Origin: Escherichia phage moha
Sequence record: MN850590.1
Strand: one strand, 5' to 3'
Length of the DNA: 64,000 bases
Shown: one piece after another, positions 21,112 to 38,153 of the stretch
How the letters are laid out: the number at the start of each line of letters is the position of its first letter
Position numbering within the stretch: position 1 is the stretch's first letter
Notes under the pieces: model-generated
Seen by the model: only the letters and a program-made list of their open reading frames with translations
The model's database searches: none
What the model was told of the DNA's origin: nothing
Position numbers and translations under genes: made by a program

Positions 21112-21744
21112 ATGTCTAAAGTTACTTACATCATCAAAGCTTCTGAAAACGCTCTGAATGAAAAAACTGCTGCAATAATGGTTTATATCATTAAGAACAA
21201 CTTCACCACTGCTGCCAATGTCCGTGAAGCTCTGGAAGCGGAATACAATGCATCAGTTGTTAACTCTAACATTGGTGTATTGATTAAGAAAGGTTTAGTC
21301 GAAAAATCCGGTGATGGACTTATAGCAACAGGCGAAGCAATGGATATTATCCAAAAAGCTGCAGACCTATTTGCTCAAGAAAATGCTCCAGAACTTCTTC
21401 AGAAACGTAACACCAGAAAAGCACGTGGAGTTACTCCTGAAATGCATGAACTAGCAAACTTTGTTTTTGAAAATATTAAAGATAAAGTTGAAGTTAAAGA
21501 AATTGGTGAAAACCGTAGTAACTTAGAAGTTCGATTTGCAAAACGAGTTCTAGGTATTCGTCAGATCGAAATTCGTCGAGATGGCGCTCTTAGAATCTTT
21601 GCATACAACATGTCAGAAACTGAATCAAAACTGTTTACTTCTCTTGAAAATGATGTTAAGATTAAGATCGGTGGTAAATATACTTACATTGACTTCCCTA
21701 ATGTGTCCAAAGAAATCATTACCCTTGTAACTAACGTACTGTGA
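21112..21744 (+). CDS. motA: MotA middle-transcription activator
   Basis: 210 aa; N-terminus MSKVTYIIKAS...VNSNIGVLIKKGLVEKSGDGLI matches T4 MotA as remembered. Confidence 0.9.
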   Translation: MSKVTYIIKASENALNEKTAAIMVYIIKNNFTTAANVREALEAEYNASVVNSNIGVLIKKGLVEKSGDGLIATGEAMDIIQKAADLFAQENAPELLQKRNTRKARGVTPEMHELANFVFENIKDKVEVKEIGENRSNLEVRFAKRVLGIRQIEIRRDGALRIFAYNMSETESKLFTSLENDVKIKIGGKYTYIDFPNVSKEIITLVTNVL

Positions 21745-35394: not shown

Positions 35395-35664
35395 ATGGCT
35401 AAGAAAGAAGCAGTTGAATTTAATCAAGATGTGCACGGTGAAGAACTGGCTAAACTAGTCAAGGAAGCTTCCGATAACAAACTTAAAATTTCTGGTTATA
35501 ATGAACTGATTAAAGACATTCGTACTCGTGCTAAAGAAGAGCTTGGTGTCGATGGAAAAATGTTTAATCGTTTGTTAGCTCTTTATCATAAAGACGCTCG
35601 TGACCAATTTGAAGCTGAAAACGAAGAGGTAGTCGAGCTTTATGACACAGTTTTCACTAAGTGA
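35395..35664 (+). CDS. dsbA: DsbA dsDNA-binding protein
   Basis: 89 aa from ATG at 35395; between rnh and 33. Confidence 0.6.
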   Translation: MAKKEAVEFNQDVHGEELAKLVKEASDNKLKISGYNELIKDIRTRAKEELGVDGKMFNRLLALYHKDARDQFEAENEEVVELYDTVFTK

Positions 35665-35980
35665 TATTAAACCGGTTGATGAGGCCGGTTTATCTGAACA
35701 AGAATTAGCAGTAAAACACGATAAAGATGATATCGCTAAATTGCTTGACCGACAAGAAAACGGATTCATTATCGAATCCATGGTTGAACAATTTGGTATG
35801 TCTTATTTAGAAGCAACAACTGCTTTCTTGGAAGAAAATTCTATTCCAGAAACACAATTTGCTAAATTTATTCCTACAGGAATTGTTGAAAAAATTACAA
35901 GCGAAGCAATTGACGAAAACATGCTTCGCCCATCAGTTGCTCGTGGTGAAAAAACTAATACGTTAGATTTCTTATTATGA
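35642..35980 (+). CDS. 33: gp33 late transcription co-activator
   Basis: 112 aa, same as T4 gp33; position. Confidence 0.65.
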   Translation: MTQFSLSDIKPVDEAGLSEQELAVKHDKDDIAKLLDRQENGFIIESMVEQFGMSYLEATTAFLEENSIPETQFAKFIPTGIVEKITSEAIDENMLRPSVARGEKTNTLDFLL

Positions 35981-36630
35981 TTAAAATACGCATGCCTCCT
36001 GATGGAGAACGTTATATTAACGGAAAATCGGTATACAAACTATACTTGATGTGCAAACAACATTTTAATGGTCGGTATGACGTAATCAAATATAACTGGT
36101 GCATGCGTGTTTCGGATAATGCGTATCAAAAACGCCGAGATAAATATTTCTTTGAAAAACTAGCAGAGAAATATAAATTGAAGGAACTCACCTTGATATT
36201 CATAAGCAACTTAGTTGCTAACCAAGACGCATGGATTGGTGAGATATCAGACGCTGATGCATTAGTTTTCTATAGGGAATATATTGGACGTCTCAAACAA
36301 GCTAAAGAGACGTTTGCTGAAGACGTACGTAACATCTACTATTTCAGTAAGAAAGTTGAAGTTAGTGCGCTTCAAGAGATATTTGATTATAATAACAACG
36401 TTCAGTCGAGCTACATATTCAAATTGCTACAAAGCAATATAATTTCATTTGAGACTTTCTTATTGTTGGACTCGTTTTTGAATATTATAGATAAGCACGA
36501 CGAACTCACCGATAACTTAGTCTGGCAAAATTATTCTATCAAATTAAAGGCATATCGAAAAATACTTCAAATCGATGGAAATGCTGCTAAGAAATTGTTC
36601 ATAGAAACAATCAAATCATGTAAGTATTAA
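35977..36630 (+). CDS. 59: gp59 helicase loader
   Basis: 217 aa, same as T4 gp59; directly upstream of gene 32. Confidence 0.7.
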   Translation: MIKIRMPPDGERYINGKSVYKLYLMCKQHFNGRYDVIKYNWCMRVSDNAYQKRRDKYFFEKLAEKYKLKELTLIFISNLVANQDAWIGEISDADALVFYREYIGRLKQAKETFAEDVRNIYYFSKKVEVSALQEIFDYNNNVQSSYIFKLLQSNIISFETFLLLDSFLNIIDKHDELTDNLVWQNYSIKLKAYRKILQIDGNAAKKLFIETIKSCKY

Positions 36631-36654
36631 GCTTTATTTTATCTGTGTTAGAAT
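36631..36654 (+). promoter_or_regulatory. middle promoter-like element (MotA-box-like plus -10)
   Basis: GCTTTA, 11 bp, TAGAAT. Confidence 0.4.
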
Positions 36655-36659
36655 TACCG

Positions 36660-36667
36660 TATAAATA
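36660..36667 (+). promoter_or_regulatory. late promoter TATAAATA for gene 32
   Basis: exact TATAAATA about 80 nt upstream of gene 32 ATG. Confidence 0.55.
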
Positions 36668-36671
36668 AAAC

Positions 36672-36747
36672 ATACCAGCTACGAGGTATAAGTGTCGTAG
36701 CAACCGACTGTAAAATTTAATTAATAATCTAAATAAAGGCAAATAAA
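36672..36747 (+). promoter_or_regulatory. gene 32 translational operator (pseudoknot plus AU-rich site)
   Basis: stem gctacga/tcgtagc with loop bases ggtat pairing upstream atacc; then a long A/U-rich tract up to the AUG. Confidence 0.65.
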
Positions 36748-37647
36748 ATGTTTAAACGTAAAAGTACCGCAGACCTCGCAGCTCAGATGGCTAAACTGAA
36801 TGGTAACAAAGGTTTCTCTTCAGAAGATAAAGGTGAATGGAAGCTGAAACTCGATGCATCCGGTAATGGTCAAGCGGTAATTCGTTTCCTGCCGGCAAAA
36901 ACAGATGACGCACTTCCGTTTACAATTCTTGTTAACCACGGGTTCAAGAAAAATGGCAAATGGTATATTGAAACCTGTTCATCTACACACGGCGATTATG
37001 ACTCTTGTCCTGTATGTCAGTACATTAGTAAAAATGACCTGTACAATACCAACAAAACTGAATATTCTCAACTGAAACGTAAAACTTCTTATTGGGCTAA
37101 TATTCTGGTTGTTAAAGACCCTCAAGCTCCAGATAATGAAGGTAAAGTATTCAAATATCGTTTCGGTAAAAAGATTTGGGACAAAATCAATGCAATGATT
37201 GCAGTCGATACTGAAATGGGTGAAACTCCTGTTGATGTAACTTGCCCATGGGAAGGTGCTAACTTTGTGCTGAAAGTTAAACAGGTTTCTGGTTTCAGTA
37301 ACTACGACGAATCTAAATTCCTGAATCAATCTGCGATTCCAAACATTGATGATGAATCTTTCCAGAAAGAATTGTTCGAACAAATGGTTGACCTTTCTGA
37401 AATGACTTCTAAAGATAAGTTCAAATCGTTTGAAGAATTGAATACTAAATTTAATCAAGTTCTTGGTACTGCCGCTCTTGGTGGTGCAGCAGCTGCCGCA
37501 GCTTCTGTTGCAGATAAAGTTGCTTCTGACCTTGACGATTTTGATAAAGACATGGAAGCCTTTAGTTCTGCAAAAACTGAAGATGACTTCATGAGTTCCT
37601 CGTCTTCTGACGATGGCGATCTCGATGACCTGTTAGCTGGTCTATAA
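36748..37647 (+). CDS. 32: gp32 single-stranded DNA-binding protein
   Basis: Zn-binding H/C cluster [10 protein letters not shown]; acidic C-terminus; 299 aa. Confidence 0.92.
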
Positions 37648-37653
37648 TAAATT

Positions 37654-37676
37654 GGGAGACTTCGGTCTCCCTTTTG
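37654..37676 (+). terminator. intrinsic terminator after gene 32
   Basis: gggagac-ttcg-gtctccc then TTTT. Confidence 0.75.
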
Positions 37677-37702
37677 AGTATCTGTAAATTGCCGAAAAAG
37701 TT

Positions 37703-37731
37703 GTTTACTTCTTACCTGGATGTGTTAGTAT
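37703..37731 (+). promoter_or_regulatory. T4-type early promoter
   Basis: GTTTAC, 17 bp spacer, TAGTAT. Confidence 0.55.
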
Positions 37732-37760
37732 AGACCTATCAACAACATGAGGAAATCAAA

Positions 37761-38153
37761 ATGGAAATCGGAAAATCTTATATCATTAACCCTTTGTTTA
37801 AAGACGACTTTGTTCAAGAAGCACCACACAATAACGCTAAGATGTTAAAATTGATTGAACTCCACGGGCCTAGTTTTGTTGTAAACGGAATGGAACCTGA
37901 TTATGATAGCGATACGCTAAACGTAGTAAGTGTAACTATGGAAGATGGTACTGTATGTTCTGCTGGTGGTGAAATTGAAACTTATTTTGAGATTTATCAT
38001 GATGAGTTCAAATACTTTACTGAGGTAGATTTAGTAAAGCCTCAACCTACTAACGAAGGTGTAACTTTAGGTGTAACAAAAATCCATTGTATCGTAGATG
38101 AAACTAACGTCGACGAAATCATCAAACTTTTGCAAAAAACTTTTAAAAAGTAG
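37761..38153 (+). CDS. hypothetical protein (frd.3 position)
   Basis: 130 aa. Confidence 0.5.
   Translation: MEIGKSYIINPLFKDDFVQEAPHNNAKMLKLIELHGPSFVVNGMEPDYDSDTLNVVSVTMEDGTVCSAGGEIETYFEIYHDEFKYFTEVDLVKPQPTNEGVTLGVTKIHCIVDETNVDEIIKLLQKTFKK

Follow-up and report, generated by a model that had tools for sequence, protein, structure and literature searches.

The gene 59-32 spacer of an RB69-type phage as the probable site of gene 32 transcription starts and autogenous translational control

In the window (the whole stretch of DNA analysed, 64,000 nucleotides), a spacer of 117 nt lies at 36631-36747 and corresponds exactly, in both coordinates, to the gap between the open reading frames of genes 59 and 32. 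Gene 59 occupies 35977-36630 on the plus strand, with its stop codon at 36628-36630, and its product is identified, by matches to both Pfam domains, as a counterpart of gp59, the helicase loader of T4. Gene 32 follows on the same strand at 36748-37647, and its product is assigned to Pfam PF08804 (E 6.6e-64). The gp32 translation opens with MFKRKST, the N-terminal basic FKRKST motif being present, and contains the His/Cys3 zinc site (H64, C77, C87, C90). In T4 gp32, the FKRKST motif is responsible for cooperative binding, and the zinc-containing core binds single-stranded DNA. An intrinsic terminator-like hairpin (GGGAGAC-UUCG-GUCUCCC, then a run of U) is found 3' of gene 32 on the plus strand at 37654-37675. 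Gp33 is encoded at 35642-35980 and a MotA ortholog at 21112-21744 (MotA_activ, E 1.1e-39; MotCF, E 2.2e-8). A 43-aa open reading frame antisense to the spacer (36611-36742) was set aside as a mechanical ORF.

A 501-nt query spanning the spacer matched 153 phage records with up to 99.6% identity, nearly all of them from Escherichia and Shigella phages; Mosigvirus phages match the window at up to this identity. The gp32 of the window is identical to that of RB69 at 298 of 299 residues, only one residue being different, and shares 90% identity with T4 gp32 over residues 1-268. The RB69 record (NC_004928) lists the genus Mosigvirus, and its gene order is equal to that of the window. Judged by its sequence, the phage is therefore a T4-like Mosigvirus of the RB69 type.

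The upstream part of the spacer carries two promoter-like arrangements. Middle promoters of T4 consist of a MotA box and, 12 +/- 1 bp further, the -12 TAtaaT -7 element, deviations in the box being tolerated (PMC2988021). The first-pass annotation had noted a MotA-box-like element and an exact late promoter box a short way upstream, and both are present on the plus strand. The former, TTAAGCTTTA at 36627-36636, overlaps the gene 59 stop codon and agrees with the consensus (a/t)(a/t)(a/t)TGCTTtA in all but one of its 10 positions, A replacing the first T. It has a -10 element, TAGAAT, at the proper spacing, 12 bp 3' of the box (36649-36654), and this predicted middle promoter would start transcription near 36661. 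The window has 21 occurrences of the combination GCTTYA-N11-13-TANNNT where 5.3 +/- 2.2 would be expected, a fourfold enrichment, and 16 of the 21 are on the plus strand. The TAnnnT form of the -10 element is retained in RB69 and in another leader, L002, although the spacer differs.

The late box, TATAAATA, of exact T4 type, is located at 36660-36667. In late promoters this box spans -13 to -6 (PMC1524935), hence the late start would fall at about 36673, on one of the first two nucleotides of the pseudoknot described below. A start at 36673 itself would cost the structure its first stem 1 pair and leave a T4-like stem of 4 bp. The box taken by itself is not enriched in the 64-kb window (6 found, 6.9 expected), and the prediction of a late promoter therefore rests on its conserved position and on a published prediction. 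As to position, TATAAATA is found 3-5 nt 5' of the pseudoknot in RB69, in L002 and in leaders of the Serratia CHI14 and Erwinia Cronus types, in which the pseudoknot sequences differ. As to the published prediction, Nolan et al. 2006 listed for RB69 a middle promoter, Pm:147081 (score 18.1), and a late promoter, Pl:147067, with the low score of 7.5. These map to 36622-36662 and 36636-36678 of the window and enclose the MotA-box/-10 and TATAAATA sites, respectively. Stacked middle and late promoters are thus plausible as predictions and agree with those published for RB69.

Downstream of the late box, the transcript can fold into an H-type pseudoknot (36672-36701, plus strand). Its 5' arm of stem 1, AUACC (36672-36676), is followed by a loop 1 of one A (36677), the 5' arm of stem 2, GCUACGA (36678-36684), the 3' arm of stem 1, GGUAU (36685-36689), loop 2, AAGUG (36690-36694), and the 3' arm of stem 2, UCGUAGC (36695-36701). 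Stem 1 comprises 5 Watson-Crick pairs (36672-36676 with 36685-36689) and stem 2 comprises 7 (36678-36684 with 36695-36701). The 3' arm of stem 1 begins directly after the 5' arm of stem 2, so that the junction is 0 nt and a coaxial junction is possible. The stem of gctacga with tcgtagc and the loop pairing of ggtat with atacc had been proposed from the letters of the sequence, and every coordinate of that proposal was right, as was its H-type arrangement.

Folding was evaluated by an exhaustive H-type search written by the authors. It combines Turner stacking from a hard-coded table with penalties of 9 kcal/mol for initiation and 0.3 kcal/mol for each nucleotide in a loop, and adds a coaxial term where the junction has no nucleotide; its energy model is crude. 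On 36660-36725 the optimum was the proposed fold at -12.0 kcal/mol, and the best nested fold had -10.7 kcal/mol. None of 500 dinucleotide shuffles reached the energy of the proposed fold (best shuffle -8.5; z = -10.4), so the pseudoknot-aware folding suggested at the outset upheld it. A similar energy estimate gave -12.5 for the pseudoknot of the window, -12.6 for the T2-type pseudoknot, whose structure has been solved by NMR, and -10.0 for that of T4. Nested folding of 36668-36750 gave z = -1.18, a value that is uninformative because nested folding excludes pseudoknots and the A/U tail dilutes the signal. Rfam 15, searched at a permissive threshold over 36000-38000, returned no family for the element and only snoRNA-like chance matches with E > 1; the absence carries no weight since the gene 32 pseudoknot has no Rfam family.

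Searched for on both strands of the 64 kb, the strict Watson-Crick form of this architecture has a single occurrence, the one in the gene 32 leader. One such pseudoknot anywhere in the window is unremarkable, because dinucleotide shuffles give 0.45 per window, and this figure, together with the lack of enrichment of TATAAATA, could be taken to mean that the complementarity and the promoter-like motifs arose by chance in an A/T-rich spacer. Scaled to a 117-nt leader read on one strand, the same shuffles predict only about 4e-4 pseudoknots, which speaks against a coincidence at gene 32. The shuffled energies given above and the strong covariation described below speak against it as well, and the core is identical to that of the experimentally characterised RB69 operator. 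A chance origin has a negligible probability and is effectively refuted by the covariation and the pseudoknot-aware search.

The distribution of the structure was assessed on 41 distinct T-even-type leaders, taken from the gp32 loci of viral contigs with T4 and RB69 added. A blind H-type search found a homologous pseudoknot in 17 of the 41, its 3' end being located 30-49 nt upstream of the AUG, and found none in about 20. The carriers include T4, a T2-like phage, RB69-type phages, Klebsiella phage Marfa and a large group of Klebsiella phages, as well as Serratia CHI14, Erwinia Cronus and E. coli VR5; Yersinia fHe-Yen9-01/phiR1-RT have a larger variant. Leaders of the Enterobacter (Karamvirus-like) and Edwardsiella PEi20 types are among those without the pseudoknot.

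For the covariation analysis, 11 distinct pseudoknots from T-even-like phages of Escherichia, Klebsiella, Serratia and Erwinia were aligned in structural blocks with N-padded loops. Standard pairs filled 95.5% of the cells, and in stem 2 all cells (100%) paired. Changes on both sides of a pair, i.e., compensatory ones, were found in 8 of the 12 pairs (4 of 5 in stem 1 and 4 of 7 in stem 2), the inner two C-G pairs of stem 1 being nearly invariant. A one-nucleotide loop 1, always A, and a zero-nucleotide junction are common to all 11 leaders. The last flank base of L018 is incorrect in this alignment, but its column is unpaired and the pair counts are unaffected. The covariation score was 0.688 against 0.218 +/- 0.038 after shuffling, and 0 of 500 shuffles scored as high; since the aligned sequences are related, this control does not amount to a probability. 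When the 3' partners were slid by 1-3 columns as a control, pairing fell to 25-47%. The block layout favours stem 1. An unguided MAFFT alignment placed stem 2 in the same way, but in several sequences the 3' arm of stem 1 came out of register owing to the differing loop lengths. G-U pairs occur in the leaders of T4 and of the Marfa and CHI14 types. On the other strand they would become C-A mismatches, and the folded molecule is therefore the sense RNA. The comparison of relatives proposed as a check of the structure thus supports both stems. This support now extends to the T-even-like phages of Klebsiella, Serratia and Erwinia, and lineages devoid of the pseudoknot have been identified.

The same data bear on a simpler structure, in which only stem 2 forms, as a hairpin that stabilises the 5' end or serves as a processing signal, and the complementarity of stem 1 is incidental. 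The minimum-free-energy structure in nested folding is indeed this hairpin alone, at -10.7 kcal/mol, and the advantage of the pseudoknot over it is just 1.3 kcal/mol in the crude energy model. The gene 32 mRNA of T4 is, moreover, unusually stable and is processed just 5' of the structure (PMC3014915). Yet an incidental stem 1 is hard to reconcile with compensatory double changes in four of its five pairs, with its nearly invariant inner C-G pairs or with the constancy of the one-nucleotide loop 1 and the zero-nucleotide junction. The T2 homolog is a pseudoknot with coaxially stacked stems in the NMR structure 2TPK (Holland et al. 1999, as cited in PMC3014915), and the corresponding putative pseudoknot segment of RB69 is sensitive to RNase V1 (PMC535899). 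The hairpin on its own is therefore given a very low probability, and the complete H-type pseudoknot is preferred.

From the 3' end of the pseudoknot to the AUG extends an A/U-rich tract (36702-36747, plus strand), the predicted unstructured part of the operator. It has 46 nt, 80% A+T, four UAAA and two UUAA. No pairing is predicted within it, and it spans the Shine-Dalgarno element AAGG (36736-36739, plus strand) up to the AUG. The long A/U-rich stretch described upstream of the start codon in the first-pass annotation thus agrees with both the composition and the folding of the RNA. Counted from the AUG, -47 is the last nucleotide of the pseudoknot and -46 the first of the tract, a boundary that fits the RB69 map, given that the tract is 1 nt longer in the window.

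The tract also contains an ACUGU box (36707-36711, plus strand). Between -70 and -1, ACUGU was found in 38 of the 41 T-even-type leaders, with 63 copies against a background of 0.066 per leader. Leaders with a pseudoknot have one non-coding ACUGU, usually 4-5 nt and at most 14 nt (L016, L018, L030) 3' of the structure. Pseudoknot-less phages have 2-4 copies, which form part of the final codons of gene 59 only if this coding sequence comes within about 35 nt of the gene 32 AUG. In leaders with gene 59 ending 35 nt or less from the AUG, its last 48 nt have a mean of 2.4 copies, spread over three reading frames, compared with 0.2 where it ends farther away (Mann-Whitney p = 9e-7, phylogeny not being corrected for). 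The C-terminal peptide of gene 59 is nearly unchanged in spite of these differences (for example, LFIETIKSCKF versus LFIETVKNCKF). This variation in copy number with the distance of gene 59, under a nearly constant peptide, indicates selection at the nucleotide level. A role of the box as a late promoter (TGTAAATA) or as an extended -10 element was rejected on inspection, since T4 and other phages read TGTTAATT at this place.

Environmental gp32 loci of about 40% identity, from more distant T4-like phages, had no ACUGU and showed at the corresponding place a repeated AAUACA, with 43 copies in 21 leaders where about 2 were expected. A search of the literature, the searchable part of which is limited, found neither motif described for gene 32. 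It is conceivable, and is put forward here tentatively, that the ACUGU(U/A)AA box is an undescribed conserved component of the gene 32 operator, and that the pseudoknot is either not its sole specific element or not ancestral. If the repeats were lineage-specific sites of gp32 recognition or nucleation, they would account for how a phage lacking the pseudoknot might autoregulate gene 32. Both motifs bear on the question raised in a 2010 review, whether and how gp32 regulates its own synthesis in phages lacking this structure.

Taken as a whole, the spacer between genes 59 and 32 is very probably the transcription start region of gene 32 and its autogenous translational operator. The element would be present on transcripts of three kinds: MotA-dependent middle transcripts starting near 36661, gp55-dependent late transcripts starting near 36673, and read-through transcripts from upstream. 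Both 5' ends are positions deduced from the promoter elements. Each transcript would bear the pseudoknot (36672-36701) at or near its 5' end. Gp32 in excess of the available single-stranded DNA would bind its own mRNA at the pseudoknot and from there spread cooperatively in the 3' direction over the A/U-rich tract, so that the ribosome-binding site would be covered and initiation blocked. When single-stranded DNA appears, gp32 would be titrated off the mRNA and translation would be resumed. Binding, repression and nucleation by gp32 are attributed to this leader by analogy, being carried over from the literature on RB69 and T4.

The location of the late box allows for another reading, according to which the pseudoknot mainly guards the mRNA against 5'-end-dependent decay, repression being exerted through the A/U-rich tract alone. 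The position of TATAAATA in the four diverged leader types named above would make late transcripts begin at the structure. In T4, the RNase E cut at -71 produces a 5' end 4 nt ahead of the pseudoknot (-67 to -40), and many T4-like phages without a pseudoknot retain an A/U-rich leader. Against a purely protective function, repression in T4 is reported to require both the pseudoknot and the UUAAA/UAAA elements, according to references given in PMC535899, and gp32 footprints take in the 3' half of the pseudoknot. The guarding and gp32-nucleating roles are, besides, compatible with each other. As a replacement for nucleation, 5'-end protection is considered improbable. As an addition to the nucleating operator, it is possible: late transcripts would begin at the pseudoknot much as the RNase E-processed T4 mRNA does, so the 5'-terminal pseudoknot may have a second role in the stability of this unusually stable mRNA.

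The identification of the region as a T4-type autoregulatory leader of gene 32 is supported by the Pfam match of gp32, the RB69-identical core, the covariation and the fold. A reader working from the sequence alone thus located the gene 32 operator correctly. The element itself is already known, and the result is correct but ordinary: it is textbook autogenous control by a viral single-stranded-DNA-binding protein.

The closest of the known systems is the gene 32 operator of RB69. By probing with chemicals and RNases, footprinting with gp32 and assays of repression, Borjac-Natour, Petrov and Karam 2004 (PMC535899) showed that a T4-like pseudoknot with an unstructured tract behind it acts there as the autogenous translational operator. 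In that leader, A(-1) to A(-45) were single-stranded by DMS, DEPC and RNase V1, and gp32 protected U(-14) to G(-61) (PMC535899). RB69 gp32 acts as a repressor of its own synthesis in vivo and, in purified form, inhibits the translation of its mRNA in vitro, deletions of pseudoknot elements having been used as a test of repression (PMC535899). The RB69 leader shares with the window the identical pseudoknot core CAUACCAGCUACGAGGUAUAAGUGUCGUAGCAACC, the location between genes 59 and 32 with no segG, and the common layout of MotA box, -10 element and TATAAATA. The two differ in the A/U-rich tract, to which the window adds 1 nt and several substitutions (CCGACUGUAAAAUUUAAUUAAUAAUC where RB69 has CCAACUGUAAAUAAAUUAAAUAAUC, for example). 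The Shine-Dalgarno element is AAGGC in the window and AAGGU in RB69, and the -10 element is TAGAAT in the window and TAAAAT in RB69. With an identical core and a gp32 one residue apart, the operator of the window is a near-copy of a characterised one.

The T4 operator, as described in PMC535899 and PMC3014915, which cite McPheeters, Stormo and Gold 1988 and Shamoo et al. 1993, has a pseudoknot and, 3' of it, more than 40 nt of sequence with UUAAA/UAAA repeats. In the proposed model, gp32 starts at the pseudoknot and spreads cooperatively across the ribosome-binding site (PMC535899, PMC3014915). The pseudoknots of T4 and the window have in common the H-type fold, the single A of loop 1, the 7-bp stem 2, the AAGUG of loop 2 and the 0-nt junction. 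The flank ACCAACUGU, the UUAAA/UAAA repeats, the Shine-Dalgarno element and the AUG follow in the same order. Stem 1 of T4 has four pairs including one G-U (UGCC/GGUA), whereas that of the window has five Watson-Crick pairs, the G-U being replaced by A-U and one A-U being added. One U-A pair of stem 2 in T4 is C-G in the window, a compensatory change. In T4, the 5' half of the pseudoknot overlaps the segG reading frame. The TATAAATA of T4 is located about 150 nt upstream of the AUG, within segG, and its mapped P32 middle start lies at 148057, which is 204 nt upstream of the AUG.

The T2 gene 32 pseudoknot of the NMR structure mentioned above resembles that of the window in its stacked stems, single-A loop 1 and 7-bp stem 2, and a T2-like leader (L005) aligns with the window. 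It differs in stem 1 (UGACC/GGUCA), in a loop 2 of 7 nt (UACAUCG) compared with 5 nt in the window, and in the gap between TATAAATA and the pseudoknot, which is 17 nt in T2 and 4 nt in the window. A more distant parallel is the E. coli rpsO (S15) mRNA, an autogenous translational operator with a pseudoknot near the ribosome-binding site (PMC3014915). In sequence and mechanism, it is unrelated to the gene 32 operator, and the likeness is one of analogy only. The initiation region is part of the rpsO pseudoknot, on which S15 traps the ribosome, and there is no cooperative coating of an unstructured tract.

The gene 32 leaders of T-even-type phages carry a short conserved box, ACUGU(U/A)AA, which is present in 38 of the 41 distinct leaders with an expectation of 0.066 copies per leader. 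The survey covered positions -70 to -1 from the gene 32 AUG in numbered gp32 loci from viral contigs (L007-L015, L021, L113-L117 and other gp32 loci). In the phage moha leader, the box lies at 36707-36711. The leaders with a pseudoknot contain a single non-coding copy, typically located 4-5 nt 3' of the structure and up to 14 nt away in three of them. In the pseudoknot-less leaders, 2-4 copies are placed inside the final codons of gene 59, where they are read in three different frames. Such embedded copies occur only where the end of gene 59 is no more than about 35 nt from the gene 32 AUG. No description of the box was found in the literature that could be searched.

The box is absent from the leaders of the Yersinia phages fHe-Yen9-01 and phiR1-RT (L028 and L029). 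These leaders possess a larger pseudoknot variant at approximately -108 to -43 relative to the AUG of gene 32. Its stem 1 consists of 8 bp (ACAAUGAA/UUCAUUGU) and is followed by a 5-nt loop 1, while stem 2 is formed by GGUGUAG and CUACAUC with a 4-nt junction and a 9-nt loop 2. The more distant T4-like gp32 genes of environmental origin, with about 40% identity, were considered over the 70 nt upstream of gp32 (L032-L081, e.g., L061, L054, L060, L069 and L080). No ACUGU box is present in these leaders, and inspection by eye together with motif counting revealed no pseudoknot of the T-even type. They contain AAUACA / CGCAAUAC in 2-5 repeated copies; ATACA was counted 43 times in 21 distant leaders versus about 2 expected.

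The gp32 protein encoded in the window differs from that of RB69 by one residue, with Thr59 (codon 36922-36924) in the place of Ala59. Seven nucleotides past its stop codon, gene 32 is followed by a strong hairpin with the sequence GGGAGAC-UUCG-GUCUCCC and then by a U run (37654-37675). The minus strand yielded a call for this hairpin as well, but the T run behind it there is weak (AATTTATTAT).

The middle-promoter pattern was seen 21 times in the whole window against 5.3 expected, and 16 of the 21 matches are on the plus strand. A second MotA-box/-10 match near gene 32 (GCTTCA, 13 nt, TATAAT; 36369-36393, plus strand) is found inside gene 59, some 355 nt ahead of the gene 32 start codon. This site may serve gene 32 as a further middle promoter. 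The window encodes a MotA ortholog (21112-21744, plus strand), in which the match to the activation domain is strong (E 1e-39) and that to the DNA-binding domain is weak (E 2e-8). Escherichia phage VR5 (L112) has a clear MotA box, AAATGCTTAA, followed after 12 nt by TATAAT, between its homing endonuclease gene and the pseudoknot. A homing endonuclease gene separates genes 59 and 32 in both VR5 and T4 (L001) and ends near the pseudoknot; in T4 its reading frame overlaps the structure.

In four leader types with differing pseudoknot sequences, the late promoter box TATAAATA lies 3-5 nt upstream of the base at which pseudoknot pairing begins. The box and the 5' edge of the structure occupy 36660-36676 in the window and the equivalent place in L017, L018, L024, L002 and RB69. 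At this spacing, late transcripts would begin at the pseudoknot itself. In the T2-like and Marfa-like leaders, TATAAATA is 17-22 nt from the pseudoknot, and in T4 it is located inside segG, about 80 nt upstream. The hexamer GAAUUA (36651-36656), 16 nt upstream of the pseudoknot, shares bases with the -10 element of the predicted middle promoter. Given the site preference of RNase E, it may be a candidate site for this enzyme. In T4, the identical hexamer spans the -71 RNase E processing position just upstream of the pseudoknot (cgGAAUUAugcc).
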